Sequence record: PP766721.1
DNA length: 39,500 nucleotides
Origin: Escherichia phage Baskent_phicoli_1
Reading direction: 5' to 3' (one strand)
The position numbers and the translations under genes are program-made. The notes beneath the pieces were generated by a model. That model ran no database searches and was not told where the DNA came from. It worked only from the letters and a program-made list of their open reading frames with translations. Numbering within the stretch: position 1 is the stretch's first letter; each line of letters starts with the position of its first letter. Positions 1,294 to 34,485 of this stretch are shown here, in pieces.

Positions 1294-1316
1294 ACTAAAC
1301 TATCACTATAGGGACT
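1294..1316 (+). promoter_or_regulatory. Phage RNAP promoter (phi6.5-like), predicted +1 G at 1311
   Basis: TAAACTATCACTATAGGGA; identical to T7 promoters from -8 to +6, distinct at -15 to -9. Confidence 0.8.
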
Positions 1317-2550: not shown

Positions 2551-4119
2551 ATGGCTGAACGCGAAGGGTTCGCTGCTGAAGGAGCCAAAGCGGTCTATGA
2601 CCGACTGAAGAACGGGAGACAGCCATATGAGACACGCGCTCAGAACTGCGCTGCTGTCACTATCCCGTCACTGTTTCCTAAGGAGTCCGACAACTCATCT
2701 ACTGAGTATACCACTCCGTGGCAATCCGTAGGTGCTCGCTGCTTGAACAATTTGGCTGCAAAGCTGATGTTGGCGTTATTCCCTCAGTCACCATGGATGC
2801 GACTGACAGTCTCCGAATATGAGGCAAAGACCTTGAGTCAGGACTCAGAGGCGGCTGCTCGTGTTGACGAAGGGCTGGCTATGGTCGAGCGTGTGTTGAT
2901 GGCTTACATGGAGACTAACAGTTTCCGCGTCCCATTATTCGAGGCGCTGAAGCAGCTTATCGTCTCAGGTAACTGTCTGCTCTACATTCCAGAGCCTGAA
3001 CAGGGTACCTACAGTCCCATGCGAATGTACCGCTTAGTGTCTTACGTTGTTCAACGTGATGCGTTCGGTAACATCTTGCAGATTGTGACTCTCGACAAGG
3101 TAGCGTTTAGTGCTCTACCGGAAGACGTGAAGTCTCAGCTCAACGCAGACGACTATGAGCCTGACACCGAGCTGGAAGTATATACACACATCTACCGTCA
3201 GGACGACGAGTATCTGCGCTACGAGGAAGTGGAAGGCATTGAGGTGACAGGGACCGATGGTTCCTACCCGCTGACTGCATGTCCATACATCCCGGTACGA
3301 ATGGTTCGACTGGATGGTGAAGACTACGGTCGTTCTTACTGCGAGGAGTATCTGGGAGACCTCAACTCGCTGGAGACGATTACAGAAGCTATCACCAAAA
3401 TGGCTAAGGTAGCCTCCAAGGTGGTGGGCCTCGTTAACCCGAACGGTATCACGCAACCTCGACGTCTGAACAAGGCGGCTACAGGTGAGTTCGTGGCTGG
3501 TCGCGTTGAGGACATCAACTTCCTGCAACTGACGAAAGGTCAGGACTTTACGATTGCCAAGTCGGTGGCTGATGCTATCGAGCAACGTTTAGGCTGGGCC
3601 TTCCTTCTTAATAGTGCTGTTCAGCGTAATGCCGAGCGGGTCACTGCTGAAGAGATTCGTTATGTTGCTGGCGAACTGGAGGCGACCTTAGGTGGCGTGT
3701 ACTCAGTTCAGTCACAAGAGCTTCAGTTACCTATAGTCCGTGTGCTGATGAACCAACTTCAGTCTGCTGGCATGATTCCTGACCTTCCGAAAGAAGCGGT
3801 AGAACCTACTGTATCCACTGGTCTGGAAGCTCTGGGCCGTGGTCAGGACTTAGAGAAGCTAACTCAGGCAGTCAACATGATGACCGGGCTACAGCCTCTG
3901 CAACAGGACCCAGACATTAACTTGCCGACCCTGAAGCTGCGACTGCTGAATGCCTTAGGCATTGACACCGCTGGTCTACTGCTGACTCAGGACGAGAAGC
4001 TGCAACGTATGGCTGAACAATCCGCTCAAGGAGCTGTGGTCAACGGTGCGTCTGCTGCTGGTGCTAACATGGGCGCTGCTGTAGGTCAAGGAGCTGGTGA
4101 GGATATGGCTCAGGCCTAA
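2551..4119 (+). CDS. gp8: Portal (head-to-tail connector) protein, gene 8
   Basis: 522 aa; size and position as T7 gp8 (536 aa); GGAGG SD. Confidence 0.93.
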   Translation: MAEREGFAAEGAKAVYDRLKNGRQPYETRAQNCAAVTIPSLFPKESDNSSTEYTTPWQSVGARCLNNLAAKLMLALFPQSPWMRLTVSEYEAKTLSQDSEAAARVDEGLAMVERVLMAYMETNSFRVPLFEALKQLIVSGNCLLYIPEPEQGTYSPMRMYRLVSYVVQRDAFGNILQIVTLDKVAFSALPEDVKSQLNADDYEPDTELEVYTHIYRQDDEYLRYEEVEGIEVTGTDGSYPLTACPYIPVRMVRLDGEDYGRSYCEEYLGDLNSLETITEAITKMAKVASKVVGLVNPNGITQPRRLNKAATGEFVAGRVEDINFLQLTKGQDFTIAKSVADAIEQRLGWAFLLNSAVQRNAERVTAEEIRYVAGELEATLGGVYSVQSQELQLPIVRVLMNQLQSAGMIPDLPKEAVEPTVSTGLEALGRGQDLEKLTQAVNMMTGLQPLQQDPDINLPTLKLRLLNALGIDTAGLLLTQDEKLQRMAEQSAQGAVVNGASAAGANMGAAVGQGAGEDMAQA

Positions 4120-4137
4120 ACTATCACTATAGGAACA
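4115..4137 (+). promoter_or_regulatory. Phage RNAP promoter (phi9-like), +1 G about 4132
   Basis: TAAACTATCACTATAGGAAC overlapping gene 8 stop. Confidence 0.75.
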
Positions 4138-4234
4138 CCGAAAGTAAGAGCGACTAAGCCGACCATATGGTAGCCGTTAGTCCCACACTGCAAGTAGGTG
4201 TTTACCTATTAACGACTTAAAGGAGAATGACTCA

Positions 4235-5119
4235 ATGTCTCAATCAGTTTATGCCGAGTTTGGCGTTAGCTCTACTGCAATCACGGGTTCCGTTGAGGAC
4301 CTGAACGAACACCAAAAGTCTATGCTTGAACAGGACGTAGCTGTTCGTGATGGAGACGACGCTATTACCTTCAAGCAACTGGAAGCCGAAAACGAAGAGG
4401 CGACCGAAGAAGACGAGAACGTCGAAGAGACTGAAGGTGAAGAAGACCATGAGTCCGATGACGAAGAGTCTGAGACCGATGGTGAGCAGCCTGAGTTCAT
4501 CGAACTGGGTGATGCACCGAAAGAGCTGACCGAAAGTGTCACCGCCTTGGATGAAAATGAAGCTGCATTCGACGACATGGTGTCTTCTGCTGTGGAAGCT
4601 GGCAAGGTCACTGCTGATGAAATTACCGCTATCAAGGCTGAATACGCCAAGGACGGTAAGCTGTCTGACGCATCCTACGCTAAGTTGCAGGAAGCAGGTT
4701 ACACCAAGCGTTTCGTAGATTCGTTTGTACGTGGTCAGGAAGCTCTGGCTGAACAGTATGCTGCTGGTGTGGTTCGCTACGCTGGTGGAGCTGAACAGTT
4801 TAATCGAATCCTGTCACACCTTGAGTCCAACGACCCGTCAACTCGTGAAGCACTGGAAGCTGCTATCGTTCGTAAGGACATCGCGACTACCAAAGCTCTG
4901 CTGAATCTGGCTGGAAAGACTCTGGGTAAAGCTGTGGGTGTTAAACCTCAGCGTACCATCACCACTCAGGCTAAACCTGTGGTCGCACCTAAGGCTCCTC
5001 AGACCGAAGCATTCAGCTCCAAGGCTGACATGATTAAGGCAATGAGTGACCCGCGCTACCTGCGTGACGCTAAGTACACGATGGAAGTTCGCGCTAAGGT
5101 AGCTGCCTCAAGCCTGTAG
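4235..5119 (+). CDS. gp9: Capsid assembly scaffolding protein, gene 9
   Basis: 294 aa, strongly acidic (E/D-rich) N-terminal third, position between portal and capsid genes. Confidence 0.88.
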   Translation: MSQSVYAEFGVSSTAITGSVEDLNEHQKSMLEQDVAVRDGDDAITFKQLEAENEEATEEDENVEETEGEEDHESDDEESETDGEQPEFIELGDAPKELTESVTALDENEAAFDDMVSSAVEAGKVTADEITAIKAEYAKDGKLSDASYAKLQEAGYTKRFVDSFVRGQEALAEQYAAGVVRYAGGAEQFNRILSHLESNDPSTREALEAAIVRKDIATTKALLNLAGKTLGKAVGVKPQRTITTQAKPVVAPKAPQTEAFSSKADMIKAMSDPRYLRDAKYTMEVRAKVAASSL

Positions 5120-5120
5120 G

Positions 5121-5143
5121 ACTAAACTATCACTATAGGGAGA
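5121..5143 (+). promoter_or_regulatory. Phage RNAP promoter phi10 (full consensus), +1 G about 5138
   Basis: TAAACTATCACTATAGGGAGA directly upstream of major capsid gene with long leader and strong SD. Confidence 0.85.
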
Positions 5144-5243
5144 CCAAGACGCGACTCAAGGTTTCCCATTACTTCAGTCCATACGGATTGGGCGTACAGT
5201 AAGTAATAAACTTTATCTTTCAATTGAATAGGAGAATTATCAT

Positions 5244-6293
5244 ATGGCAAACGTTCCGGGTCAGAAAATTGGTACAGACCAAGGTAAAGGCAAATCTAGT
5301 TCCGACGCTCTGGCGTTGTTCCTGAAGGTCTTTGCTGGTGAAGTCCTGACCGCATTCACTCGCCGCTCTGTAACGGCTGACAAGCATATTGTCCGTACCA
5401 TTCAGAACGGTAAGTCTGCTCAGTTCCCGGTCATGGGTCGCACCTCTGGTGTGTATCTGGCTCCCGGTGAGCGACTGTCCGATAAGCGTAAAGGTATCAA
5501 ACATACCGAGAAAGTGATTACCATTGATGGTCTGCTGACTGCCGATGTGATGATTTTCGACATTGAAGACGCGATGAACCACTATGACGTGGCTGGCGAG
5601 TACTCCAACCAGTTGGGTGAAGCTCTGGCTATCGCTGCTGATGGTGCGGTTCTGGCTGAAATGGCTCTCCTGTGTAACCTCCCGGCCGCATCCAACGAGA
5701 ATATTGCCGGTCTGGGCACTGCGTCAGTACTTGAAGTTGGTACTAAAGCCGACCTGAACACTCCGGCTAAGCTGGGTGAAGCAATCATCGGTCAACTGAC
5801 CATTGCTCGTGCGAAGCTGACCTCCAACTACGTTCCTGCTGGCGACCGATACTTCTACACCACGCCGGACAACTACTCTGCAATCCTCGCGGCTCTGATG
5901 CCGAACGCTGCTAACTATGCTGCGCTGATTGACCCAGAGACTGGCAACATCCGTAACGTGATGGGCTTCGTTGTTGTTGAGGTCCCGCATCTGGTGCAGG
6001 GTGGTGCTGGTGAGACCCGTGGTGACGATGGTATCTCTATCGCCTCCGGTCAGAAACACGCATTCCCGGCGACTGCTGCTGGCGACGTTAAAGTTGCTAT
6101 GGACAACGTTGTGGGTCTGTTCTCTCACCGTTCTGCTGTGGGTACTGTGAAGCTGCGTGACTTGGCGCTGGAACGTGACCGTGACGTCGATGCTCAGGGC
6201 GACCTGATTGTTGGTAAGTACGCTATGGGTCACGGTGGTCTGCGTCCTGAAGCAGCGGGCGCACTGGTTTTCACAGCAGCGTCAGCGGGTTAA
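5244..6293 (+). CDS. gp10A: Major capsid protein 10A
   Basis: 349 aa; LALFLKVFxGEVLTAF, KSAQFPV, KHTEKVITIDGLLTADV, EDAMNHYDV, LMPNAANYAALIDPE, RNVMGF, HRSAVGTVKLRDLALER, KYAMGHGGLRPEAAGA match T7 gp10A. Confidence 0.97.
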   Translation: MANVPGQKIGTDQGKGKSSSDALALFLKVFAGEVLTAFTRRSVTADKHIVRTIQNGKSAQFPVMGRTSGVYLAPGERLSDKRKGIKHTEKVITIDGLLTADVMIFDIEDAMNHYDVAGEYSNQLGEALAIAADGAVLAEMALLCNLPAASNENIAGLGTASVLEVGTKADLNTPAKLGEAIIGQLTIARAKLTSNYVPAGDRYFYTTPDNYSAILAALMPNAANYAALIDPETGNIRNVMGFVVVEVPHLVQGGAGETRGDDGISIASGQKHAFPATAAGDVKVAMDNVVGLFSHRSAVGTVKLRDLALERDRDVDAQGDLIVGKYAMGHGGLRPEAAGALVFTAASAG

Positions 6294-6558: not shown

Positions 6559-6598
6559 GAAACCCCTTGGGTGCCTTCGGGTGCTTGAGGGGTTTTTT
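6559..6598 (+). terminator. Tphi-like terminator for phage RNAP
   Basis: AACCCCTTGGGTGCCTTCGGGTGCTTGAGGGGTTTTTTG, near-identical in design to T7 Tphi (AACCCCTTGGGG...CTTGAGGGGTTTTTTG). Confidence 0.8.
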
Positions 6599-6613
6599 GC
6601 TTAAGGAGGGCCT

Positions 6614-9782: not shown

Positions 9783-9831
9783 AGGGCCTATAGATTTACC
9801 TTAACTATCACTATAGGGGACTATAGGCCCT
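9783..9831 (+). repeat. 11-bp perfect inverted repeat (AGGGCCTATAG / CTATAGGCCCT) enclosing promoter phi13
   Basis: Arms at 9783-9793 and 9821-9831 read directly; promoter core in the 27-nt loop. Confidence 0.8.
9799..9821 (+). promoter_or_regulatory. Phage RNAP promoter (phi13-like), +1 G about 9816
   Basis: TTAACTATCACTATAGGGGA. Confidence 0.75.
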
Positions 9832-16100: not shown

Positions 16101-17080
16101 GTACGACCAACTACCTGTTAGATGCTGGACGTCAAGGCTTTCTGTCTGACATCGTGGAGCATAGCCTGACTGGTAGTAAGCGTAAGTTCGATGACCGCTG
16201 GCTGAAGACAGCTGGTATCTCTGACGAGCAGTGGAAGGGCATTAAGTCCCTAATCCGTGAGTCAGTGACTCGTGGTCCAGACGGGAAGTACACCATCAAG
16301 GATAAGAAGGCGTTCAGTCAGGACCCAAGGGCTATGGACCTGTGGCGTATGGGAGACACCATCGCTGACGAAACGTTACTCCGTCCTCATAAGCTGTCAA
16401 ACATGGACGCCAAGGCTTATGGTCCTCTCGCTAAGACTGTCCTTCAGTTTAAGAACTTCGTCATCAAGTCCATCAATGGTCGAACAATGCGAACCTTCTA
16501 TAACGCCACGAAGAACAACCGAGCGATGGATGCTGCTCTGTCCACTGTGATGTCTATGGGCCTTGCTGGTATCTACTACATGGCTCAGGCACACATCAAG
16601 GCTTACGCTATGCAGGATGGTCGAGACCGTGACTATCTCAAGCAAGCTCTGGACCCGACGATGATTGGCTATGCAGCTCTATCGCGTAGTTCACATCTTG
16701 GTGGACCACTTGGGGTAGCTAACATTCTTGGGGGTATCGCTGGGTACGAGGACACTAAGATGCTCCGTTCGTCTATCCTACCTCGTTCGCCTACAGAGAA
16801 GCCTGAACGTGCCATCGCGTATGGTGCATCTACAAGTGACCCTGTGATGAATGTTGTTGGTAACTTCTTGGAGCAGGTTCCAGCTTTCGGATATGCTGCT
16901 AACGTTGGCGCTTCGGCTTACAACTTGGCTGGCTACCTCAAGGCCGATACTCGTGTCAACGAGCGTGACTACATGACAGGGATGTATAATACGTTCCGTG
17001 AACTGGTTCCGAACGACCCCATTACCCAGAGGCTGTTGCTTGGAACGTTTGAGGAGCAAGGCATCCACATCAAGGACTAA
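13193..17080 (+). CDS. gp16: Internal virion (core) protein, gene 16
   Basis: 1295 aa; long collinear similarity to T7 gp16 from about residue 190 (STWFGF, RWNxHxWxxEELxxIR, VITGGSPxNL, AGxIGAGVDPLxYVP, ARETARN, VRSPTGMQSGASGK, TYVPHVY, SFLEARNLFDSD, NYLLDAxRQG, AMDLWR); N-terminal about 120 aa differ. Confidence 0.95.
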   Translation: MATRGIRNNNPGNIRVSKDQWEGMTGDDGAFVTFDSPESGVRALGKNLLSYGRQGYDSIEKIINRWAPPNENDTQAYIDSVVAATGIPATQSLDLSNPDTLSALAQAISFHETGSRYNPEVYQQGVARALNGISPKTPPVSANVFDALTEGLKAKPKVALGENLPTAAGLNIEGQAPEAPNESFGEMFYKATGETMQERENRSTWFGFGAATEAEVKNSMVGVAIRAGQTEDSLDVIGDVFNPTRWNNHKWSREELDQIRNAGVLPQYYGVITGGSPQNLTELINLALENQKLDQEKAKAGTGAQLAAGVIGAGVDPLTYVPIAGQVGKGGKLVNKMFTVAAQSGALAGVSEMARTSVAGGDAHVAEAILGGALFGGGMTAIADGLGRALGRNTNEFAGPATRLEARETARNVDGQDLSRLPIQEGEQTFIHQGVKFADVPNEPGSVRLEDGSILIGENPLNPKTRQVFDEVIEPERAAAGVNLGGLTEIGLKLLRSENPEIRGVAADLVRSPTGMQSGASGKIGTTASDVFERLRAVDHRFYNDIDDAVTEALKDPYFQTAFWRDSGAFRQDIYQRVSMAIEDGSGNLKAELTPGELKVYDLLKNQFDAKREMMENPAMFGRPDAKSIFPGSRFKGTYVPHVYSKQMKELYIKELGSTEALQEAIKKSWLTSYASRPEVKKRVDEALLEADPTLTPEGLAAAVDKYANDKAYGISHTEQFERSSVMEENINGLVGLENNSFLEARNLFDSDMSIVLPNGQTFSVNNLREWDMDKIVPAYNRRVNGDIAIMAGTGKTTKDMKDLVETMMNKAGDDGKLKGEVSTLRDTLKILTGRARRDGADDAAFATVMRTMTDLSFFAKNAYMGVQNLTEIGGMLARGNVRALLHGVPIFRDLAFRNKKVGASEIKDLHSVLFGKELDDSIRPSKQDVIDRLRSYSDLGRGTATALGTAKYYTGELAVRSPFTKVLNGTTNYLLDAGRQGFLSDIVEHSLTGSKRKFDDRWLKTAGISDEQWKGIKSLIRESVTRGPDGKYTIKDKKAFSQDPRAMDLWRMGDTIADETLLRPHKLSNMDAKAYGPLAKTVLQFKNFVIKSINGRTMRTFYNATKNNRAMDAALSTVMSMGLAGIYYMAQAHIKAYAMQDGRDRDYLKQALDPTMIGYAALSRSSHLGGPLGVANILGGIAGYEDTKMLRSSILPRSPTEKPERAIAYGASTSDPVMNVVGNFLEQVPAFGYAANVGASAYNLAGYLKADTRVNERDYMTGMYNTFRELVPNDPITQRLLLGTFEEQGIHIKD

Positions 17081-17098
17081 ACTATCACTATAGGAAAC
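17076..17098 (+). promoter_or_regulatory. Phage RNAP promoter (phi17-like), +1 G about 17093
   Basis: TAAACTATCACTATAGGAAA overlapping gene 16 stop. Confidence 0.75.
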
Positions 17099-17144: not shown

Positions 17145-19301
17145 ATGTCCACGATTACACAATTCCCTTCAGGAAACACTCAGTACAGGATTGAGTTCGA
17201 CTACCTAGCCAGAACGTTTGTTGTTGTTACGCTGGTGAATAGCTCTAACCCTACCCTGAACCGTGTACTGGAAGTTGGTAGAGATTACCGATTCCTTAAT
17301 CCAACGATGATTGAGATGTTGGTTGACCAATCAGGTTTCGACATCGTTCGTATTCACCGTCAGACTGGAACTGACTTAGTGGTAGACTTCAGGAATGGCT
17401 CAGTGTTGACAGCTAGTGACCTGACCAATGCAGAGCTTCAGGCTATCCATATTGCAGAGGAAGGTCGAGACCAAACTGTTGACTTAGCGAAGGAATATGC
17501 TGATGCTGCTGGCAGCTCTGCTGGCAACGCTAAGGATAGCGAGGACGAAGCACGACGAATCGCTGAGAGTATCAAGGCAGCTGGTCGCTTTGGCTATATT
17601 ACCCGTCGCTCCTTCGAGAAAGGCTTCAACGTTACAACATGGAACGAGGCCCTGCTATGGGAAGAGGATGGTGATTATTACCGCTGGGATGGTACGCTTC
17701 CAAAGAACGTTCCTGCTGGTTCAACTCCTGAAGCGTCTGGTGGTATTGGTCTTGGTGCGTGGGTTAGCGTTGGTGACGCATCATTACGAGCCGATTTGTC
17801 GTCAAAAGATGGGATGGAATTAATAGGAGGCGACCTTAAATCATACGGAGCAGATGCTTCTGGGTCAACTCCATGTGACAGCCAACTTTCACAAATGCTA
17901 GCTGATAAAAAATTCATAGTTAACTCTGGAACTTACTTAATAACATCTACTATTGAGGTGGACATTTCCTCACTTGAATATGTAGAAGTTGGTCCTGATG
18001 TTGAATTTATCATTAAAAGCAACATTAATGGTTTCATATTTAAGAATCCGAATGCTAATTTCGACGCTAACGGTATGCGTATAACCGTAGACATCCCCGG
18101 AGGTGGATACACAAGTACAGCACTAACCTTAAGGGGGGGTAAATATTACACTGGGCCTGCTAACTTTAGCCGGTTATCCCATAAGAATAAATTTGGACCA
18201 TTTTACGTATACAACAGACAGGGTGCCGTTAAGCAAGAGTCAGCGTCTGCTCCTGTTACCGATGAGGGGTACGGCTTCTCTATAGACTGCAACTCAGCAG
18301 GTGAAGAAATTCTGATATGGAACGAAGTTGATGTCTCATCCACCGGGTTTACTGTTGCTCATGCAATTGGCGTAGGAACCAATCCACTTAACTTTATTTC
18401 ATCTCTTGACCTTAAGTTGGTATCCTGGTTCAGTACATATCACTTCAGGGACACCAGTATCCCGAAATCTGGCGGCAACGTAGCTGGGGGAATTGGGGAT
18501 GTGCGTGTGCGATTACAATCACAACCTCACGCTCAGATGGTTAAAGTTGTGCATATGGAGCACGCACCTGGCTTCATGAGTGGTTGCCGATTTGACCTGT
18601 CAATCTGGGACCCTAACGCCTATGGATATACCGCGAACGTGGTCGATGCATCCGTGACGAACGAATATACAAATACTATGGAGCGGAAAGCATATCCGTT
18701 AACTCGAGTGTTGAACATGGTAGATGGTAGTATATTCCCGGTCGTGAATTACACCAGTAGCATCCAGCAGTCTGATATACTTTCCAGTAGTGACCCTGAA
18801 CTGGCTAAGTACCTGTACCTATCAACTGTAACGCCAGAAATGACAGTGTTACAAGCATGTAACGCTATTAAAACATGGTGTAACGAAAATAACATCCGTA
18901 ATAATTTTGAATTCAAAGTGTTTTTAGGAGACTCTACCGCCGACATACGTAACGTTTTTCTCCCGTGGATAACAGCTATAGGTGACTCCTCAGGATACTT
19001 ACATCTATATGCTACTTTTTACAATGGAATTATAAATACAGTGCGTGTCGAGTACGAGGTTAATCCGATAACCAGCGGCGGAAAGACAGAAAAACACGAA
19101 ATATTATGGACAAACACAACAGGTCTTGTGTTGCATCGCCTGATTGAGTACTCATTCGGTACCACGGCTGAGATAAAAAGCAAGGTAGCCATACAAGTGA
19201 AAGGCTTCACTACTTTTGACTCAACTTTCAACATCCCTGTTTGGTATAATGGCAATAGTTCATGGCTTAAAGCAGACGGTTCTGTGGCATATTCTGCTTA
19301 A
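17145..19301 (+). CDS. gp17: Tail fiber / tailspike: T7 gp17-like N-terminal adaptor fused to a large C-terminal domain (putative polysaccharide depolymerase)
   Basis: 718 aa; N-terminal about 150 aa (FDYLARTFVVVTL, LVVDFRNGSVLTASDL, QAIHIAEEGRD) match T7 gp17; linker WxSVGDASLRADLSSKDG is typical of tailspike beta-helix starts; C-terminal region is visibly AT-rich. Confidence 0.88.
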   Translation: MSTITQFPSGNTQYRIEFDYLARTFVVVTLVNSSNPTLNRVLEVGRDYRFLNPTMIEMLVDQSGFDIVRIHRQTGTDLVVDFRNGSVLTASDLTNAELQAIHIAEEGRDQTVDLAKEYADAAGSSAGNAKDSEDEARRIAESIKAAGRFGYITRRSFEKGFNVTTWNEALLWEEDGDYYRWDGTLPKNVPAGSTPEASGGIGLGAWVSVGDASLRADLSSKDGMELIGGDLKSYGADASGSTPCDSQLSQMLADKKFIVNSGTYLITSTIEVDISSLEYVEVGPDVEFIIKSNINGFIFKNPNANFDANGMRITVDIPGGGYTSTALTLRGGKYYTGPANFSRLSHKNKFGPFYVYNRQGAVKQESASAPVTDEGYGFSIDCNSAGEEILIWNEVDVSSTGFTVAHAIGVGTNPLNFISSLDLKLVSWFSTYHFRDTSIPKSGGNVAGGIGDVRVRLQSQPHAQMVKVVHMEHAPGFMSGCRFDLSIWDPNAYGYTANVVDASVTNEYTNTMERKAYPLTRVLNMVDGSIFPVVNYTSSIQQSDILSSSDPELAKYLYLSTVTPEMTVLQACNAIKTWCNENNIRNNFEFKVFLGDSTADIRNVFLPWITAIGDSSGYLHLYATFYNGIINTVRVEYEVNPITSGGKTEKHEILWTNTTGLVLHRLIEYSFGTTAEIKSKVAIQVKGFTTFDSTFNIPVWYNGNSSWLKADGSVAYSA

Positions 19302-22427: not shown

Positions 22428-22450
22428 ACTTAACTATCACTATAGGGAAG
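22428..22450 (+). promoter_or_regulatory. Phage RNAP promoter (phiOR-like), +1 G about 22445
   Basis: CTTAACTATCACTATAGGGAAG downstream of terminase gene. Confidence 0.75.
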
Positions 22451-23026: not shown

Positions 23027-23210
23027 TCTCACAGTTCAAGAACCTCAAGTCTCCCCATAGGCCCTCTTTCAGTCCAGACCAAAGGCCCTACCCAGTCTAT
23101 CATAAGGTTGGACCGATGGTCAAGACTTCAGGTCAACGATAGGTTGAGGCTATGGCTGGAGGTCGGGACGATAGGTTGGGACTATGGGTCTGTCTCTGAG
23201 TCTCTATCTG
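23027..23210 (+). repeat. Inferred left genome end and direct terminal repeat (collapsed to one copy here)
   Basis: TCTCACAGTTCAAGAACC...CCCCATAGG matches the T7 left end TCTCACAGTGTACGGACC...CCCCCATAGGGGG; the 3' boundary of the repeat is a guess. Confidence 0.45.
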
Positions 23211-23240
23211 TATAGTGTTATAGTATAACATTACGTCCTA

Positions 23241-23422: not shown

Positions 23423-23452
23423 TTGACTATAGGTCTAGACTGTGGCTTAATA
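23423..23452 (+). promoter_or_regulatory. Host sigma70-type early promoter (A1-like)
   Basis: TTGACT at 23423-23428, 17-bp spacer, CTTAAT; AT-rich UP-like tract upstream; T7 A1 also has TTGACT. Confidence 0.55.
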
Positions 23453-23563
23453 GCTTCCGTCAACACGACACGGCAACAACCGGATAGTGAAGACGCCGGG
23501 TCATCCCGGTTAAGTAGACAGCCTGATAAGTCATACGAACAACAGGCAGATGACAGAAAGTAG

Positions 23564-23593
23564 TTGACAAGCAGTAACGACTTAAAGTAGTAT
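23564..23593 (+). promoter_or_regulatory. Host sigma70-type early promoter (A2-like)
   Basis: TTGACA at 23564-23569, 18-bp spacer, TAGTAT; flanks match the T7 A2 region (ACAGGxxTTGACAA). Confidence 0.6.
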
Positions 23594-23711
23594 GTACCAC
23601 GTAGCAAGATGGCGTAGGGATAGGAACCGAGAAACCTGCCAGAGGCCAGCCAAGGATAAGGCACCAGCCGTGAGTCGAATTCGGTCACTCACCGCATAAA
23701 AGAATAACAGG

Positions 23712-23740
23712 TTGACAGCCTCCTTTAAAAGCTGTAAGCT
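23712..23740 (+). promoter_or_regulatory. Host sigma70-type early promoter (A3-like)
   Basis: TTGACA at 23712-23717, 17-bp spacer, TAAGCT; downstream CCACATCGAAACGACGGTGA matches T7 A3 context CCACATGAAACGACAGTGA. Confidence 0.6.
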
Positions 23741-23941
23741 GTGCCACATCGAAACGACGGTGAAGCCTAACACTGAAACAGGCTAGCACGGCGACGACAG
23801 CCAATGCGAATGCTCTTTAACAATCTGGATAAACTCTTAATGTGCGCCGATAGCGACTAACTACAGGGTCTTTGAGTCTACATCTGAAGGCCCTGACTGA
23901 TAGTCACTAACATACACAAACAACTTTGAGAGGATATAACT

Positions 23942-24774: not shown

Positions 24775-24972
24775 ATGAGTCTTGCACTATTGATAGCCAT
24801 AGGATATGGACTTATCGCCTACGTGCTGATGAGAGACATCAACAAAGCGCGTAAAGTCTACAAATTCAACTATGTACGGCTGGGCCGCTGGACTGTACGT
24901 CAACCTAACGGACGATTCATGCGAAACTTAGCGAACGTCTGGGACATAGCAACTCTGGGAGGTAAACTGTGA
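24775..24972 (+). CDS. Small early protein with N-terminal TM helix (65 aa)
   Basis: MSLALLIAIGYGLIAYVLM then basic tail; coupled upstream and downstream. Confidence 0.5.
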   Translation: MSLALLIAIGYGLIAYVLMRDINKARKVYKFNYVRLGRWTVRQPNGRFMRNLANVWDIATLGGKL

Positions 24973-25397
24973 TGGAAAAGCTATGCAGAACATGCCACGC
25001 TTTAAAGCCGCTGGAAGAGTACCACAAGCATAAAACCTCCAAAGACGGCAGGGAGAGTCAGTGTAAGACTTGCCGCAATAAGCAGATTATGAAGACCAGG
25101 AAACTACGATACAGTAAGTCTGCTAGCTTCAGGGAGTCTAAACGGAACGAAACCCTGCGTAAACTGTACGGGATTACAGTAGATGACTATGAGGAGATGT
25201 TTAAGCGGCAGGGCGGGGTGTGCGCTATCTGTCATCAGCCGGAAACTGGTAACATACGAATGGCGGTAGACCACTGTCATGCAAGTGGTAAAGTTCGCGG
25301 GCTACTGTGTAAAAACTGCAACACTGCGCTAGGAAACCTAAAAGACTCGATTGAGATTCTCACAAACGCAATCACATATCTTCAGGAGAACAATTAA
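24969..25397 (+). CDS. Endonuclease VII-family (HNH-fold) nuclease, probable homing endonuclease
   Basis: 142 aa; GGVCAICHQPETGNIRMAVDHCHASGKVRGLLCKNCNTALG aligns with T4 endonuclease VII GKCLICQREL...HLDHDHELNGPKAGKVRGLLCNLCNAAEG; extra N-terminal CxxC...CxxC. Confidence 0.8.
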   Translation: MMEKLCRTCHALKPLEEYHKHKTSKDGRESQCKTCRNKQIMKTRKLRYSKSASFRESKRNETLRKLYGITVDDYEEMFKRQGGVCAICHQPETGNIRMAVDHCHASGKVRGLLCKNCNTALGNLKDSIEILTNAITYLQENN

Positions 25398-25399
25398 TA

Positions 25400-25708
25400 A
25401 TGAGCAAGTCAAACGGTCTGGCATACGCAATGGTGGTAGCAATGGAAGAAGCAATCATGGCCCGTAAGTCCCGCTCTGAACGCGAACAAGCGGAGCGTGA
25501 TATGGTCCTGACTAAGCGCATGTTGGCTGAGGGCCACAAGGTAGACACCATGATTTATGTCTACGGGTCCACCAACATGAAGTCTGAAGACGGTAAGCTG
25601 CTGCTGGCAGGTAGACGGGCTGACATCCAACGGGCAAGCCTGAAGCACACGACACGCGGTGACTTCAGTCATCTTCACGCTAACCAACTGATATGCAAGC
25701 AATTCTGA
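25400..25708 (+). CDS. Hypothetical early protein (102 aa)
   Basis: ORF with compact spacing after the Endo VII-like gene; no motif recognised. Confidence 0.55.
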   Translation: MSKSNGLAYAMVVAMEEAIMARKSRSEREQAERDMVLTKRMLAEGHKVDTMIYVYGSTNMKSEDGKLLLAGRRADIQRASLKHTTRGDFSHLHANQLICKQF

Positions 25709-25730
25709 CTTAACTATCACTATAGGACTC
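25708..25730 (+). promoter_or_regulatory. Phage RNAP promoter immediately upstream of the RNAP gene, +1 G about 25725
   Basis: CTTAACTATCACTATAGGACTC, one or two mismatches to the window consensus, 75 bp before gene 1 ATG. Confidence 0.65.
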
Positions 25731-25799: not shown

Positions 25800-28481
25800 A
25801 TGAGCGTCATCTCTATTGACAAACACGACTTCTCTGATGTGTCAAACGCCATTGAGCCGTTTAACCTGCTGGCCGACCACTACGGGCAAGACCTTGCAGT
25901 CAAACAGCTTCAGCTTGAGCATGAGGCATACACTGAAGGCGAGCGACGTTTCATCAAAAACCTTGAGCGACAGACTGAGCGCGGGGAACTGGCAGACAAT
26001 CAGGTCGCCAAGCCTTTGATGCAGACTCTGGTTCCTAAGATTGCGCAAGCCGTCAGGGAGTGGCACGAAGGTCCAGACGGGAAGCTGTCAACCTCTCGTC
26101 CGAGCGTAGCGTTCACCATGTTGAGCACTGAAGAGAAGGCCGTCAAGGACCGCTCTATGCGTATCTCCTGTGAGTCTGCTGCGGTCATCATACTGAAGGT
26201 CATACTCTCCAAGCTGGTCAAGCCTGAAGGTATACCGATTACACCGATGGCCTCAGCGATAGGTCGCACACTTGAGGACGAAATCCGCTTCGGTCGCATC
26301 CGTGACAAGGAGAAGGAGCATTTCAAGAAGGCGATAGCTGAGAACTTGAACAAGCGAGCTGGGGTATCCTACAAGAAAGCCTACATGCAAGCTGTCGAGG
26401 CATCCATGCTGGAGCAAGGCCAACTGGAAGATGCATGGGGAACTTGGAGTCCGACCGAGGCTGTCCACGTTGGAATCAAGATGCTTGAGATCGTCATCCA
26501 GTCAACACAGCTGGTCGAGCTTAAGCGTTATGGTGCTGGCAATGCAGCAGCTGACGTCGAGATGGTCCACCTGACAGACTTCTGGGTCAAGAAGATGGCA
26601 CAACGAGGATTCAGCCTTGCGGGTATCGCTCCAGTCTACCAGCCTTGCGTAGTTCCACCTAAGCCGTGGACTGGTGTAGTGGGAGGTGGATACTGGGCCA
26701 AAGGTCGCAGACCGTTGCCATTGATTCGCTTAGGGTCTAAGTCTGCGGTGGCACGTTATGAAGACGTATACATGCCTGAAGTCTATGACGCTGTGAATAT
26801 CATCCAGAATACACCTTGGAAAGTGAACAAGAAGGTTCTGGACGTGGTGAACATGGTCGAGAAGTTGAACAACACGCCTATTGATGACATCCCTCAGATG
26901 GAGCCACTGAAGCCTGAAGACTATGCGGGCGAGACTGAAGAGGAACTCAAGGCATGGAAGAAAGCTGCTGCTGGTATCTACCGCCGAGAGAAGGCCCGGC
27001 AGTCACGCAGATTGTCACTAAGCTTTATCGTCAACCAAGCGAACAAATTCTCTCAGTTCAAGGCCATCTGGTTCCCGTACAACATGGACTGGCGCGGACG
27101 CGTCTACGCTGTTCCGATGTTCAACCCTCAGGGTAACGACATGCAAAAAGGGCTCCTTACTCTGGCAGTCGGCAAGCCCATTGGTGCCGATGGTTTTAAA
27201 TGGCTGAAGGTCCACGGTGCAAACTGCGCGGGTATTGATAAAGTCACCTTCGAGGAGCGCATCAAGTGGGTGGAAGACAACCACGACAACATCATGGCTG
27301 CTGCTAAGGCACCGATGGACAGCATTGAGTGGTGGGGAAAGTTAGACTCTCCATTCTGCTTCCTAGCGTTCTGCTTCGAGTATGCTGGCGTAATGCACCA
27401 CGGATTGTCTTACTCCTGCTCGCTGCCGATAGCGTTCGATGGGTCATGCTCTGGGATTCAACACTTTAGCGCGATGCTTCGTGATCACATCGGTGGACAT
27501 GCAGTAAACCTGACGCCTTCAGGTAAGGTCCAAGACATCTACCGCATCGTGTCTGACCGCATTGAGGAAGAGCTTAAAGTCCTGCTGGTTAAGGGCACGG
27601 ACAACGAGGTGGTCACTCACGAGGACAAGAAAACTGGTGAGATTACCGAACGTCTCAAGCTGGGGACACGAGAGCTGGCCCGTCAGTGGCTGACTTACGG
27701 TATGTCACGCAAGGTCACTAAGCGCTCAGTCATGACTCTGGCCTACGGGTCGAAAGAGTATGGCTTCGCAGACCAAGTTTACGAGGACATCGTGATGCCA
27801 GCGATTGACTCAGGGTCTGGCGCTATGTTCACCGAACCAAGCCAAGCGTCCCGCTTCATGGCTAAGATGATTTGGGAAGCTGTGAGCGTGACCGTAGTTG
27901 CTGCTGTTGACGCGATGAAGTGGCTTCAGGGTGCTGCCAAGCTGCTGGCTGCTGAAGTGAAGGACAAGAAGACTGGAGAAATCCTGAAGCCTTGCCTTCC
28001 GGTACACTGGGTCACACCTGATGGTTTCCCTGTCTGGCAGGAATACCGCAAGAAGGATACCACTCGTCTGAACCTGATGTTCTTAGGGTCATTCAACCTT
28101 CAACCTACGGTCAACAAGGGCACGAAGAAAGAGCTGGACAAGCACAAGCAGGAGTCAGGCATTAGCCCGAACTTCGTCCACTCACAAGATGGGAGCCACC
28201 TACGCAAGACTGTAGTCCACACTCACCGCAAGTATGGTGTTATGTCATTCGCAGTGATTCACGATAGCTTCGGGACCATCCCGGCTGACGCTGAGTATCT
28301 GTTCCGTGGTGTCCGTGAGACGATGGTCGAGACCTACCGCGACAACGACGTGCTGCTTGACTTCTACGAGCAGTTCGAATACCAGCTTCATGAGAGCCAG
28401 CGCGACAAGTTGCCCGAGCTTCCGAAGAAAGGTAAACTGAACATCGAAGACATTCTGTCTTCAGACTTTGCATTCGCTTAA
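25800..28481 (+). CDS. gp1: Single-subunit DNA-dependent RNA polymerase, gene 1
   Basis: 893 aa; collinear with T7 RNAP throughout (NxAKxDFSD, PFNxLADHYG, FPYNMDWRGRVYAV, MFNPQGNDMxKGLLTLA, DGSCSGIQHFSAMLRD, VTKRSVMTLAYGSKE, VHWVTPDGFPVWQEY, HKQESGIxPNFVHSQDGSHLRKTV, IHDSFGTIPADA, FAFA C-terminus). Confidence 0.98.
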   Translation: MSVISIDKHDFSDVSNAIEPFNLLADHYGQDLAVKQLQLEHEAYTEGERRFIKNLERQTERGELADNQVAKPLMQTLVPKIAQAVREWHEGPDGKLSTSRPSVAFTMLSTEEKAVKDRSMRISCESAAVIILKVILSKLVKPEGIPITPMASAIGRTLEDEIRFGRIRDKEKEHFKKAIAENLNKRAGVSYKKAYMQAVEASMLEQGQLEDAWGTWSPTEAVHVGIKMLEIVIQSTQLVELKRYGAGNAAADVEMVHLTDFWVKKMAQRGFSLAGIAPVYQPCVVPPKPWTGVVGGGYWAKGRRPLPLIRLGSKSAVARYEDVYMPEVYDAVNIIQNTPWKVNKKVLDVVNMVEKLNNTPIDDIPQMEPLKPEDYAGETEEELKAWKKAAAGIYRREKARQSRRLSLSFIVNQANKFSQFKAIWFPYNMDWRGRVYAVPMFNPQGNDMQKGLLTLAVGKPIGADGFKWLKVHGANCAGIDKVTFEERIKWVEDNHDNIMAAAKAPMDSIEWWGKLDSPFCFLAFCFEYAGVMHHGLSYSCSLPIAFDGSCSGIQHFSAMLRDHIGGHAVNLTPSGKVQDIYRIVSDRIEEELKVLLVKGTDNEVVTHEDKKTGEITERLKLGTRELARQWLTYGMSRKVTKRSVMTLAYGSKEYGFADQVYEDIVMPAIDSGSGAMFTEPSQASRFMAKMIWEAVSVTVVAAVDAMKWLQGAAKLLAAEVKDKKTGEILKPCLPVHWVTPDGFPVWQEYRKKDTTRLNLMFLGSFNLQPTVNKGTKKELDKHKQESGISPNFVHSQDGSHLRKTVVHTHRKYGVMSFAVIHDSFGTIPADAEYLFRGVRETMVETYRDNDVLLDFYEQFEYQLHESQRDKLPELPKKGKLNIEDILSSDFAFA

Positions 28482-28787: not shown

Positions 28788-29258
28788 ATGTTCGGTAAGT
28801 CAAAACTTAAAGCACAAATCAAAGAGTTGAGCATGAAGGTGGCATACTTGGAGCGAGCCATAAAGGTACGGGACTATGACAACGAGAGACTGAAGGCTAA
28901 ACTTGCTGAATCAGAGCGTAAGCGCCTAACGCCACCAGCGGCTGTAACTGTCAAGCGTATGGTCGGCATCAAGTTCAAGGCACTGTTCGACGGTAAGTAT
29001 CAACCGACTGAGTTCAAGACAGGCCCGGGACCATGTGGCAAGACGGTGACGCACTTCACCATAAGTTGGACAGAGCGAAGTATGACCGTCCACCAGCATC
29101 ATACGGATGGCTCTCAGAAGGACTTCGTGTACCGACTGAGCGACATCGACGGTCGAATACAGTATGACTACGAGCAAGTTAAAATCTACGGAGAAGAGGC
29201 CAAACGTGAGTCAGCGCTTCAGGCATTCATGCGGATAGGGCCGCGCATCCTATTCTAA
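28788..29258 (+). CDS. Hypothetical early protein (156 aa), helical/charged N-terminus
   Basis: ORF with GAAGAGG SD; absent from T7 at this position. Confidence 0.6.
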   Translation: MFGKSKLKAQIKELSMKVAYLERAIKVRDYDNERLKAKLAESERKRLTPPAAVTVKRMVGIKFKALFDGKYQPTEFKTGPGPCGKTVTHFTISWTERSMTVHQHHTDGSQKDFVYRLSDIDGRIQYDYEQVKIYGEEAKRESALQAFMRIGPRILF

Positions 29259-29276
29259 ACTATCACTATAGGATTA
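29254..29276 (+). promoter_or_regulatory. Phage RNAP promoter (phi1.1-like), +1 G about 29271
   Basis: TAAACTATCACTATAGGATT. Confidence 0.75.
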
Positions 29277-29801: not shown

Positions 29802-30919
29802 TGACAACTATTAAAACCAACCCGCACCGCGCTGTAGATTACTCTGAGTATGGCATTAAGAAGGCGCTGGAAGCAGCCGGGTCTCTGGAAGCTGAAGTGA
29901 AGTACGATGGTGTGCGGTTGAACCTTCCAGTATTCCCAACAGGAGAGACCCAATGGTTGAGCCGTGAGTCCAAAGAGCTTCCAGCGCTTCAGCATCTGAA
30001 GTCAGAACATGGGAGTCCTACCGAATTAACAAACTGTGGAGACTGGCGATGGTTCCTTAAACAGGCTGGCTACGAAGGTACGGGCCTGATGATTGACGGT
30101 GAGGTCATGGTTCCTGCAACCGACTTCAACACTTCCTCAGGTCTAGTCCGTACCATGTGGTCAGACACTAAGAACTACGCTTGGAATGGCAACCCAGATG
30201 CTGACATCGACACCAAGAAGAAGCATAAGGTCCCTTTCCATCTGGCAACCGACCACATCCGTGTGGTTGTCTACGGTATCGTAGACCTTAACGTCATCAA
30301 CGACCCGAAAGCAGAAGGACCTATCCATAGCGTAACCCGCCTGAAGGCCGAAGCTATCGTCCCTCTCCTGCAGAAATACTTCCCGGAAATCGACTGGGTT
30401 CTGTCTGAGTCACACACGGTCTATGACCTTGAGTCGCTCAACTCCCTGTACGAAGAGAAGCGTCTGGAAGGACATGAGGGTCTGGTAGTCAAGGACCCAC
30501 TTGGTAAATACAAGCGTGGCAAGAAGTCTGGTATGTGGAAAATGAAGCCTGAAGACACCATTGACGGTATCGTGGTCGGACTGAATTGGGGGACTGAAGG
30601 TCTCGCAAACGAAGGTAAAGTGATTGGGTTCGACGTACTGCTTGAGAACGGTATGGTAGTGGCCGCTAACAATATCTCTCAGGCCCTGATGGATGAGTTC
30701 ACCGAAGCGGTTAAAGCTGAACGTGCCTATATTTGGAATGACTGCATGACTGATATTGAGCGGGAAGAATGTGATGATGAATGTCTTGAGGATGTGAACC
30801 CCTACAAAGGACATCAATGCGAAGTCTCCTACATGGAGATGACACCAGATGGTTCCTTACGTCACCCTAGCTTCAAGTGCTGGCGCGGGACGGAAGATAA
30901 CCCGACCATTAAGAGCTAA
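29801..30919 (+). CDS. gp1.3: ATP-dependent DNA ligase, gene 1.3
   Basis: 372 aa; IKTNP, AExKYDGVR (active-site lysine motif), EGHEGLxVKDP, YKRGKKSGxWKMKPE, WGTxGLANEGKVIGFxVLLE, TPDGSLRHPSF, RGTEDNP match T7 ligase. Confidence 0.95.
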   Translation: MTTIKTNPHRAVDYSEYGIKKALEAAGSLEAEVKYDGVRLNLPVFPTGETQWLSRESKELPALQHLKSEHGSPTELTNCGDWRWFLKQAGYEGTGLMIDGEVMVPATDFNTSSGLVRTMWSDTKNYAWNGNPDADIDTKKKHKVPFHLATDHIRVVVYGIVDLNVINDPKAEGPIHSVTRLKAEAIVPLLQKYFPEIDWVLSESHTVYDLESLNSLYEEKRLEGHEGLVVKDPLGKYKRGKKSGMWKMKPEDTIDGIVVGLNWGTEGLANEGKVIGFDVLLENGMVVAANNISQALMDEFTEAVKAERAYIWNDCMTDIEREECDDECLEDVNPYKGHQCEVSYMEMTPDGSLRHPSFKCWRGTEDNPTIKS

Positions 30920-30928
30920 CTAAATGTC

Positions 30929-30960
30929 AACCCAGTGGTCTTAGGACTACTGGGTTTCTT
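30929..30960 (+). terminator. Intrinsic terminator (TE-like) after the ligase gene
   Basis: AACCCAGT...ACTGGGTT 8-bp stem with 12-nt loop followed by TCTTT; same position as T7 TE. Confidence 0.7.
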
Positions 30961-30983
30961 TACGTCTAGGACACCAGCTAGAC

Positions 30984-31006
30984 CCTAAGCTATCACTATA
31001 GGACAA
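30984..31006 (+). promoter_or_regulatory. Phage RNAP promoter variant, +1 G about 31001
   Basis: CTAAGCTATCACTATAGGACAA (G at -12). Confidence 0.65.
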
Positions 31007-31921: not shown

Positions 31922-32080
31922 ATGAGTGACGCCGAGAAGAAATACATCGTTGAGCTTGAGGGCCGCACTCAGTACTTCGAGGTTCCTGTGTACGCAAAGT
32001 CTCTTGAAGAGGCTACCCTGAAGTCCCAAGAGTATGAGGACGCTGGGTTTGTGGTCGGACGGATTCGTCCTGAGACCTAA
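31922..32080 (+). CDS. gp2: Host RNA polymerase inhibitor gp2 homolog
   Basis: 52 aa ORF below track cutoff; [13 protein letters not shown]...[10 protein letters not shown] matches T7 Gp2 FEVPIYAETLDEA...AGFEVTRVRP; AAGGAG SD. Confidence 0.75.
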
Positions 32081-32098
32081 ACTATCACTGTAGGACAG
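32076..32098 (+). promoter_or_regulatory. Phage RNAP promoter variant (phi2.5-like), +1 G about 32093
   Basis: TAAACTATCACTGTAGGACAG (G at -3). Confidence 0.6.
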
Positions 32099-34251: not shown

Positions 34252-34467
34252 ATGATTAAACTTATCGAATTTCTGGGTCGTCTGGTGGTGCGTGGTTATC
34301 GTCGCGCTGCGGCTATGGAACGAAAGGTAGCAGAGAAGTCTGCTGACGGTGCGGCTGATGCTGCTGCTCTGGCTGACAAGCTAACCATCACATCACTGGA
34401 AGCTGGCATGAGGGCGCGTCAAGCTGATACCAAGGCTGACCAGTTGGCCCAGTTCTTCAAAGCCTAA
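34252..34467 (+). CDS. Hypothetical small protein (71 aa)
   Basis: ORF with AAGGAGA SD; Ala-rich; ends QLAQFFKA. Confidence 0.55.
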   Translation: MIKLIEFLGRLVVRGYRRAAAMERKVAEKSADGAADAAALADKLTITSLEAGMRARQADTKADQLAQFFKA

Positions 34468-34485
34468 ACTATCACCTTAGGGATG
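34463..34485 (+). promoter_or_regulatory. Degenerate phage promoter-like sequence upstream of gene 4
   Basis: TAAACTATCACCTTAGGGAT: two mismatches in the -4/-3 melting region. Confidence 0.35.

Follow-up and report, generated by a model that had tools for sequence, protein, structure and literature searches.

Eleven short elements on one strand of a phage genome share a sequence, and the question they raise is which enzyme reads them and whether that enzyme and its promoters form a new pair. The DNA analyzed here, called the window throughout, is the whole 39,500-nucleotide stretch of Escherichia phage Baskent_phicoli_1 (PP766721.1). An earlier note, written from the sequence, took the elements to be promoters of the phage's own RNA polymerase, with a consensus distinct from those of T7, T3, SP6 and K11, and saw in them one half of an orthogonal promoter/polymerase pair. 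We conclude that the eleven repeats almost certainly belong to the promoter/polymerase pair of K1F, a known pair already in use as orthogonal to T7; the supposed new pair would then be one that is already in synthetic-biology use.

The window is a K1F-like phage genome

To place the sites in their genomic setting, we compared the window with phage records. Its best matches were Kayfunavirus records at about 94-95% identity; the nearest phages covered 91% of one half of the window at 95.5% identity and 88% of the other half at 94.4%. The polymerase region matched 549 phage records, the best of which were Kayfunavirus or K1F-like at 92-94% nucleotide identity. Both the best matches and the lineage of the matched records place the phage in the genus Kayfunavirus.

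When the proteins of phage EcoDS1 were mapped onto the window, a complete T7-like gene order was recovered in circularly permuted form, beginning within gene 6 and finishing after gene 5.7. As a whole, the window is the genome of a K1F-like, T7-family phage of the genus Kayfunavirus, circularly permuted; it may represent a new species-level member of this genus, which has about 70 named species. The tail spike matches those of relatives over its N-terminal 224 residues alone.

Eleven sites share a promoter consensus distinct from T7

All eleven sites that the earlier note had listed were present at their positions, and every one of them lies on the + strand. They are numbered here from -17 to +6, and their existence, their statistics, the gene positions and the identity with K1F and EcoDS1 are read directly from the window:

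1294..1316, + strand: phi6.5 (-17 to +6), ACTAAACTATCACTATAGGGACT; +1 at 1311, with gene 6.5 67 nt further on; the same 23-mer occurs in K1F and EcoDS1, where the annotated EcoDS1 feature begins 2 nt further upstream
4115..4137, + strand: phi9, CCTAAACTATCACTATAGGAACA; its first bases lie within the end of gene 8; corresponds to EcoDS1 phi9 and K1F 19999
5121..5143, + strand: phi10, ACTAAACTATCACTATAGGGAGA; the site named in the earlier note, before the major capsid gene; the same sequence is found at EcoDS1 20819 and K1F 20998
9799..9821, + strand: phi13, CCTTAACTATCACTATAGGGGAC; counterpart of EcoDS1 phi13
17076..17098, + strand: phi17, ACTAAACTATCACTATAGGAAAC; shares bases with the end of gene 16; corresponds to EcoDS1 phi17
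22428..22450, + strand: phiOR, ACTTAACTATCACTATAGGGAAG; past gene 19, upstream of gene 19.5 and the terminal-repeat region; corresponds to EcoDS1 phiOR
25708..25730, + strand: promoter of the RNA polymerase gene, ACTTAACTATCACTATAGGACTC; 75 nt upstream of that gene; counterparts at EcoDS1 2244 and K1F 2475
29254..29276, + strand: promoter ahead of gene 1.1, TCTAAACTATCACTATAGGATTA; lies partly within the end of gene 1.05; corresponds to EcoDS1 6034
30984..31006, + strand: phi1.6, CCTAAGCTATCACTATAGGACAA; has G at -12 and comes after the early terminator; corresponds to EcoDS1 phi1.6
32076..32098, + strand: phi2.5, CCTAAACTATCACTGTAGGACAG; has G at -3; the end of gene 2 covers its first two bases; corresponds to EcoDS1 phi2.5
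34463..34485, + strand: phi4, upstream of gene 4, CCTAAACTATCACCTTAGGGATG; C at -4 and T at -3; corresponds to EcoDS1 11107

A search of the window with CTWAACTATCACTATAGG, allowing up to two mismatches, returned exactly these eleven sites, compared to 0.00 expected from 100 dinucleotide-preserving shuffles. In the alignment of the 23-mers (-17 to +6, n = 11), 14 positions are invariant and two more are nearly so. The conserved block reads CT[A/T]AACTATCACTATAGG and runs from -16 to +2. Within it, ATCAC at -9 to -5 and TAGG at -2 to +2 do not vary, and there are three single-site deviations at -4/-3. Positions -12 to -8 read ACTAT at ten of the eleven sites; the exception is phi1.6, which has GCTAT here and likewise in K1F and EcoDS1.

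The shared consensus proposed in the note therefore stands for the -16 to +2 core and fails for its 3' extension, since GGGAGA (+1 to +6) is found at 5121 only. Position +3 is A in six sites and G in five, and +4 to +6 are variable. A 14-mer, TCACTATAGGGAGA, was also considered as the common core; it was rejected, as it fits four of the eleven sites at up to two mismatches, and the -16 to +2 core replaced it. The sites furthest from the consensus are phi1.6, phi2.5 and phi4, each of which precedes DNA-metabolism genes. The site with a perfect GGGAGA stands before the capsid gene, just as in T7. T7 and the window are alike in having the stronger consensus at late genes.

The position weight matrix that the note had suggested as a check was built from the eleven sites, which score between 29.3 and 35.3 bits against it; the poorest match, at 29.3 bits, is 34463..34485. 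The runner-up in the window reached 15.4 bits (1323-1345, sub-threshold) and the maximum on the - strand was 3.9 bits. No twelfth or weaker promoter was found when both strands of the window were searched with this matrix.

Compared to T7, the window consensus differs at eight of the 23 positions from -17 to +6. These eight fall without exception between -17 and -9, and -8 to +2 has the same bases. Positions -17 to -13 read (A/C)CT(A/T)A here and TAATA in T7. As the note had stated, -12 to -9 is unlike T7 (ACTA versus CGAC); the motifs that it quoted alongside, CCCT for T3 and GCAC for K11, are shifted by one and two bases, respectively, which leaves the conclusion of a difference intact. The consensus at -12 to -9 is ACCC for T3, GGGC for K11 and GTGA for SP6. 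When the consensus promoters of these phages were scored on the window matrix, T7 obtained -1.4 bits, T3 11.6, K11 2.6 and SP6 3.1, compared to at least 29.3 for the real sites, and the sites belong to none of these four classes. The note was right to read the sites as promoters of the phage's own single-subunit RNA polymerase. No T7-type site was found in the window at up to four mismatches, nor was any window-type site found in the T7 genome at the same threshold.

The sites have the general traits of T7-family promoters: a length of 23 bp, a (T)CACTATA-type sequence at -8 to -1, a G(G) start and repetition on the coding strand. The same genome encodes a cognate single-subunit RNA polymerase, and the sites precede gene clusters in T7-like order, with TE and Tphi terminators present. 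T7 and the window have in common the 23-bp architecture, -8 to -1 (TCACTATA), the GG start and the fold and catalytic core of the polymerase.

The specificity loop changes in step with the promoters

We then turned to the enzyme that would read these sites. Three features are relevant:

25800..28481, + strand: gene 1, single-subunit RNA polymerase of 893 aa, with Pfam RNA_pol and RPOL_N
28062..28151, + strand: specificity-loop region, residues 755-784 (T7 745-774), from alignment to T7 RNAP
26076..26108, + strand: counterpart of the AT-rich recognition loop of T7 (T7 93-101), from alignment to T7 RNAP

The gene 1 product scored 1277 bits against T7 RNAP chains in the PDB. Its identity to the gp1 proteins of related phages is 882/893 residues for K1F, 883/893 for EcoDS1 and 844/893 for Ro45lw. 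The specificity-loop region is identical in the window phage, K1F and EcoDS1, and the 11 differences from K1F all lie outside it. A loop region of 61 residues with at least 99% identity occurs in at least 132 phage records, and in 72 more the identity is 95-99%.

The note had claimed that the loop is substituted in step with the promoters, and the alignment that it called for bears this out. The segment that it quoted, FLGSFNLQPTVNKGTKKELDKHKQ, is exact and comprises residues 761-784; its coordinates, given as about 28020-28110, need correction to nt 28080-28151. Compared to T7, the loop has S764 (T7 Q754), N766 (R756) and V771 (I761) as well as differences in its distal part. In T7 numbering these substitutions are Q754S, R756N and I761V, and S, N and V at positions 754, 756 and 761 are the residues of a K1F-type loop. 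The T7 contact residues R746, N748 and Q758 are conserved in the window polymerase.

In the structure of T7 RNAP with its promoter, base-specific hydrogen bonds are made by R746, N748, R756 and Q758 (PMC11880802). Of these, R756 is replaced by N in the window polymerase. A promoter that is like T7 at -7 and -8 and changed from -9 to -12 would fit retained contacts together with an altered residue 756. N748 is kept, however, although -11 and -10 differ from T7, and a scheme of one residue for one base is therefore insufficient to explain everything. It is we who infer which individual residue is assigned to which individual base.

A second difference lies near the N terminus. That T7 residues 93-101 act as the AT-rich recognition loop is well established from the structure of T7 RNAP bound to its promoter. 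The corresponding segment in the window (26076..26108) reads DGKLSTSRPSV; it has fewer basic residues than that of T7, and after it come 11 residues that are inserted relative to T7. Judging from this comparison, the segment probably reads the -17 to -13 sequence, which also differs from T7.

Orthogonality of the K1F pair

The behavior of this class of polymerase has been described in several studies. Temme et al. (2012; PMC3458549) moved the specificity loop of the K1F subfamily, together with the consensus of its predicted promoters (-12 to -7), into a T7 scaffold. The resulting T7(K1F) graft was active, gave 17-fold induction and was orthogonal to the T7, T3 and N4 variants (PMC3458549). 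Its loop residues, 754S, 756N and 761V, and its cognate sequence, ACTAT at -12 to -8, are those of the window (PMC11880802, Table 2). T7(K1F) has since been reused in a split-polymerase resource allocator and a Salmonella controller (PMC4299498, PMC5436071). The graft is a chimera in which the rest of the enzyme and promoter positions -17 to -13 come from T7, in contrast to the native pair of the window, where both the N-terminal AT-rich recognition loop and -17 to -13 differ. These differences could tighten the orthogonality of the native pair, which would be an incremental gain.

Native enzymes have been studied as well. K1F RNAP and PK1F are functional in Halomonas and in E. coli, with on-target activity up 46,470-fold; non-cognate pairings within the MmP1/K1F/VP4 set gave 6- to 27-fold by comparison. 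The polymerase of Ro45lw was purified, a minimal promoter, ACTTAACTATCACTATAGGGA, was defined and the start was mapped to the +1 G (PMC12272871, J Biol Chem 2025).

One possibility is that the pair is not truly orthogonal, and that T7 RNAP could make useful transcripts from window-type promoters or the window polymerase could work on those of T7. We regard this as unlikely. It would be in keeping with the identity to T7 from -8 to +2 and with the conservation of three of the four T7 base-contact residues (R746, N748 and Q758), and a 2025 re-analysis (PMC11880802) assigned the 2012 graft set 8-fold orthogonality by a strict measure, with relatively high non-cognate activity. In addition, Takatsuki et al. 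explained the variable background of their cell-free screen by T7 RNAP cross-reacting with certain test promoters. However, Temme et al. describe each graft as highly orthogonal (PMC3458549), native K1F RNAP discriminates more than 1000-fold against the MmP1 and VP4 promoters, and the difference from T7 at 8/23 consensus positions argues in the same direction. Orthogonality is not absolute, but the K1F literature supports the claim of the note that the pair is orthogonal to T7.

The promoter/polymerase pair is that of K1F

The same literature bears on whether the pair had escaped characterization. The novelty implied by the note is refuted on the terms that the note itself set: identical promoters, served by an already characterized polymerase, are those of K1F. 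A previously uncharacterized pair might have been expected from a consensus distinct from those of T7, T3, SP6 and K11 and from a genome whose identity to the nearest phages is only about 94-95%, across 88-91% of its length. This reading is scarcely tenable: K1F and EcoDS1 have the identical promoter core and loop, the sites are annotated in GenBank, experiments exist on both graft and native enzymes, and the consensus CTWAACTATCACTATAGG was given, and interpreted as promoters, in a 2026 genome note on another Kayfunavirus.

The comparison with individual relatives supports the assignment to the K1F pair. K1F (DQ111067) has 11 promoters at the same relative positions, eight of which are identical over all 23 bases. 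The gene 1.1 site, phi4 and phi13 differ between K1F and the window by one or two bases and phiOR by three, in each case outside the -16 to +2 core. The two phages also differ elsewhere: the tail spike of K1F, an endosialidase, is unlike that of the window, and the K1F annotation has a split DNA polymerase gene, which the window lacks.

In EcoDS1 (EU734172), 11 features are annotated as 'promoter', and ten of them match the window in map position and have an identical or nearly identical 23-mer. EcoDS1 and the window both possess TE, Tphi, a terminal repeat and a concatemer-junction signal. They diverge in accessory genes (gp13 is 66%, gp5.5 33% and ligase 73% identical), in homing-endonuclease ORFs and in the C-terminus of the tail spike. 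A more distant relative, Enterobacter phage vB_EclP_26, likewise has 11 sites.

Ro45lw (also written 'Ro45Iw') belongs to the same genus, and its minimal promoter has the same core as the window. Its loop region shows two conservative changes, M to L and T to S. The Ro45lw enzyme has been characterized in vitro, whereas the activity of the window polymerase is predicted from its sequence.

A predicted transcription map of the window

With the K1F pair as the preferred reading, the sites can be arranged into a map of 11 promoters, two terminators and three candidate host promoters. By their positions, the sites are promoters for genes 1, 1.1, 1.6, 2.5, 4, 6.5, 9, 10, 13 and 17, together with phiOR. 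A start codon with a Shine-Dalgarno sequence lies 30-186 nt downstream of each of the eleven, and several of them overlap the last codons of the preceding gene. The two terminators are as follows:

6559..6600, + strand: Tphi-like terminator, located between genes 10 and 11 and formed by a hairpin of 17 pairs with a U run after it (-25.2 kcal/mol, z = -5.05)
30929..30956, + strand: early (TE-like) terminator hairpin, after the ligase gene and just upstream of phi1.6

The 69-nt stretch that holds the TE-like hairpin (30917-30985) folds at -28.3 kcal/mol (z = -4.46), and the EcoDS1 annotation puts TE and Tphi terminators at the corresponding places. The phi10 transcript is predicted from folding to begin with a stem-loop.

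The eleven 23-bp elements are almost certainly the class II and class III promoters of the phage. In the mechanism that we propose, the gene 1 polymerase would bind duplex DNA from -17 to -5, with -12 to -8 (ACTAT) read in the major groove by the specificity-loop hairpin (N in place of R756, with S754 and V761) and -17 to -13 probably read by the N-terminal AT-rich recognition loop. The enzyme would then melt the TATA segment and initiate at the first G of GG, producing transcripts that would run rightwards over genes 1.1-19.5, with the hairpins TE and Tphi as punctuation. From the literature on K1F and Ro45lw we carry over to the window phage, by analogy, that the sites are transcribed, where +1 lies and that the pair is orthogonal.

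Some T7 promoters also serve in replication initiation and packaging. That the repeats are mainly replication origins, packaging signals or recombination sites is nevertheless highly improbable: site 22428 does adjoin the terminal-repeat region, but all eleven are co-oriented with the genes and lie ahead of gene clusters, their -8 to +2 core is the universal initiation region of the T7 family, and transcription from the same sequence has been shown both in vitro (Ro45lw) and in vivo (K1F).

K1F-class promoters in an Enterobacteriaceae island

The promoter 18-mer was found many times in IMG/VR contigs of about 40 kb. The scan of viral contigs also matched loci that are otherwise dissimilar to the window. 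Two of these, L039 and L066, are related to each other and belong to a small chromosomal island that lies outside the window.

Of 5,426 complete E. coli genomes, 168 contain this integrative island. In E. coli CFSAN064035 it is bounded by 17-bp direct repeats of the 3' end of a tRNA-Gly gene, 6,374 bp apart. Its parts occur in the following order:

tRNA-Gly att site
tyrosine integrase
RAZR
promoter array
conserved structured leader, about 0.5 kb
further promoters
Rha or KilA-N-like gene
two genes without a family match

The DUF4145 protein of the island matches PD-T7-4 of PADLOC (E = 1e-102), which is RAZR. RAZR has been described as an abortive-infection RNase whose activators are the portal proteins of T7 and T3. 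The Rha-family gene is followed by proteins of 163 and 329 residues, neither of which had a Pfam, PHROG or PADLOC match. Homologues of the 329-residue protein occur in Enterobacterales only, at 69% identity or more, and its AlphaFold2 model, with a mean pLDDT of 34.5, is too poor to use.

Three co-oriented phage-type promoters, one of the ACCCA class and two of the K1F class, are found in the CFSAN064035 island. PGAP leaves stretches unannotated in the interval that separates the two K1F-class promoters and past the last one; together they amount to about 0.9 kb. The island thus holds exact copies of K1F-class promoters, flanks included, in tandem with promoters of other T7-like classes.

To assess the distribution of these copies, we searched one genome per bacterial species for the K1F 18-mer and obtained 24 matches, ten of them in Enterobacteriaceae; assuming uniform base composition, 596 Gb would be expected to give about 35 matches by chance to an 18-mer with one two-fold position. 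Eight of the ten Enterobacteriaceae matches fall in the island family (E. coli, Shigella, Citrobacter, Leclercia, Buttiauxella and Enterobacter), and seven of these eight have one to three further T7-like promoters alongside. A match in a Pseudocitrobacter prophage (L076/L110) and the matches outside Enterobacteriaceae were taken as chance or as one conserved flavobacterial locus.

The promoter classes of the island were compared at -12 to -8. ACTAT and GCTAT, both of the K1F class, are nearly always present. ACCCT is the class of another group of T7-like phages of about 40 kb, and CCCCT, AACCT, CCCAC, CACCT, ACCTT and ATTAT also occur. At one position Buttiauxella has AACCT in place of the GCTAT of the others, with +1 to +9 unchanged, which reads as a change of specificity in place.

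The first island leader, about 450-560 nt long, is almost invariant across genera and contains a branched domain with two main sequence forms. A 25-nt leader motif is common to 15 metagenome contigs, and all 14 that extend upstream of it have phage-type promoters just upstream (degraded copies in one). For 24 predicted leader pairs, 96.6% of cells were paired, compared to 77.8% in shuffles and 31-50% with slid partners. Fifteen pairs changed on both sides, a number reached in 0 of 500 shuffles, and the two forms mean that very few independent events underlie these changes. An Rfam search of the leader returned no match at E up to 1.

The leader was also considered as a mimic of the phage packaging region (phiOR and the concatemer junction). 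This idea was unsupported, as the similarity to the window consists of the promoters alone; the ATCTGT signal is absent from the leader.

We found no description of phage promoters in the RAZR island in the literature, in a search that was not exhaustive and leaves the novelty of the observation unproven. The K1F-class promoter may serve as more than a signal internal to the phage: the chances seem to us about even that infection activates the island through the window polymerase and the polymerases of other T7-like phages. If so, the island would act as a satellite or as a defence element, sensing the invader via its RNA polymerase. Should such islands carry multi-specificity promoter arrays, the classes of T7-like polymerases would also be selected by host-borne elements, and this would add to the selection on specificity classes that arises from the phage's own gene expression. 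A precedent for a small satellite of a virulent phage is provided by the 6.1-kb PICMI elements of vibrios, which are packaged as concatemers. It could be speculated that the size of the island is of interest in this respect: six copies of 6.37 kb make 38.2 kb, close to a T7-like genome.

Phage promoters in a chromosomal island

Outside the window, promoters of the K1F class (ACTAT or GCTAT at -12 to -8) were found in a 6.4-kb island of the E. coli CFSAN064035 chromosome (NZ_CP031134.1; locus L101, 9539-15929), which has 17-bp tRNA-Gly att repeats at both ends. The island encodes a tyrosine integrase, RAZR/PD-T7-4, a Rha or KilA-N protein, and two proteins without a family match (163 and 329 residues), and it carries T7-family phage promoters in tandem, K1F class together with other classes. 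Copies were seen at loci L101, L066, L039, L102, L104, L112, L117, L118, L120, L124, L125, and L129-L144. Of 5,426 complete E. coli genomes, 168 carried the island; across the Enterobacteriaceae it occurred in at least six genera, and a literature search found no paper describing it. Its promoters point away from RAZR, an anti-T7 abortive-infection RNase, and toward the remainder of the island. Possibly the island is a satellite or serves defence, and is turned on by the RNA polymerase of an infecting phage.

The class of a given promoter varied among island copies. In Buttiauxella (L120, about 6910) we observed an AACCT-class promoter at the island position that is K1F class, ACTAT or GCTAT, in other genera (compared at L118 5675, L125 4058, and L101 12569). 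The Buttiauxella copy and the K1F-class copies have the same bases from +1 to +9, so that, judged from sequence, polymerase specificity looks to have been swapped in place. The upstream partner promoter also differs among copies, reading ACCCT, CCCCT, CCCAC, CACCT, ACCTT, or ATTAT at -12 to -8.

The two promoter groups are separated by a leader some 450-560 nt long (L101 12017-12556 and homologues, alignment A4) that has no PGAP annotation and is near-invariant across genera. It contains a branched domain that occurs in two main sequence forms, with both sides changed in 15 pairs; 96.6% of the alignment cells at predicted pairs are paired, compared to 77.8% in shuffles. No Rfam match was obtained for the leader. 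We regard it as a candidate for a structured RNA that phage polymerases would transcribe.

One exact K1F-type promoter was also observed in a temperate prophage of Pseudocitrobacter faecalis (L076/L110, about 11879), with packaging genes to one side, lysis genes to the other, and a partial inverted copy, CTATCACTTATAGGGG, on the opposite strand. This site may be a chance match, since we estimate that scanning 596 Gb of genomes would yield about 35 matches by chance.

Promoters and transcripts in the window

The phage promoter at 25708-25730 lies 75 nt upstream of the RNA polymerase gene, where it would place that gene under positive feedback. The same site is present and annotated in the relative EcoDS1 (EU734172), and it is therefore a feature of the genus. 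Our scan of the T7 record found no phage promoters between 388 and 5832 (T7 gene 1 spans 3172-5823).

A stable stem-loop, GGGAGACC...GGUUUCCC (5138-5167), stands at the 5' end of the phi10 transcript and is similar to the one that opens the T7 gene 10 mRNA; the 106-nt phi10 leader gave z = -2.59. At 1323-1345, 29 nt downstream of phi6.5, there is a degenerate promoter-like copy, CCTAAGATATGACTATAAGATAG, that scored 15.4 bits on the matrix of the 11 window sites and is identical in EcoDS1 and K1F (DQ111067). This copy could be what is left of a duplicated promoter, or an element for processing or pausing; the stability of the 5' UTR was ordinary (z = 0.01).

Genome ends, tail spike, and endonucleases

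Bases 1-252 are repeated at 39249-39500 with a single mismatch (127 versus 39375). This repeat is overlap from circular assembly, and the genome unit is 39,248 bp. The physical ends are in the region of the following features:

23027-23212, 179-bp terminal-repeat sequence, single copy
23423-23750, three sigma-70-like early promoters (TTGACT at 23423, TTGACA at 23564 and 23712)

The concatemer-junction signal TCTCTATCTGTATAG stands between them, following the terminal repeat as it does in EcoDS1.

Three further genes were compared with those of the relatives:

17145-19301, tail spike gp17 (Phage_T7_tail and Tail_spike_N domains)
about 39164-39500 and on into about 253-290, HNH (HNH_3) homing-endonuclease ORF, crossing the window junction
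24972-25394, endonuclease VII family ORF (PF02945), early region, directly upstream of gene 1

EcoDS1 gp17 is 91% identical to that of the window, but only over residues 1-224, which carry the two domains. The C-terminal receptor-binding part differs, as a swapped host-range module, and it is not the endosialidase of K1F. The HNH ORF separates gene 5.7 from gene 6, a place taken in EcoDS1 by another small ORF. The endonuclease VII family ORF is probably another mobile endonuclease; it shares 48% identity with gp13.5 of EcoDS1, a protein encoded at a different place in the EcoDS1 genome.
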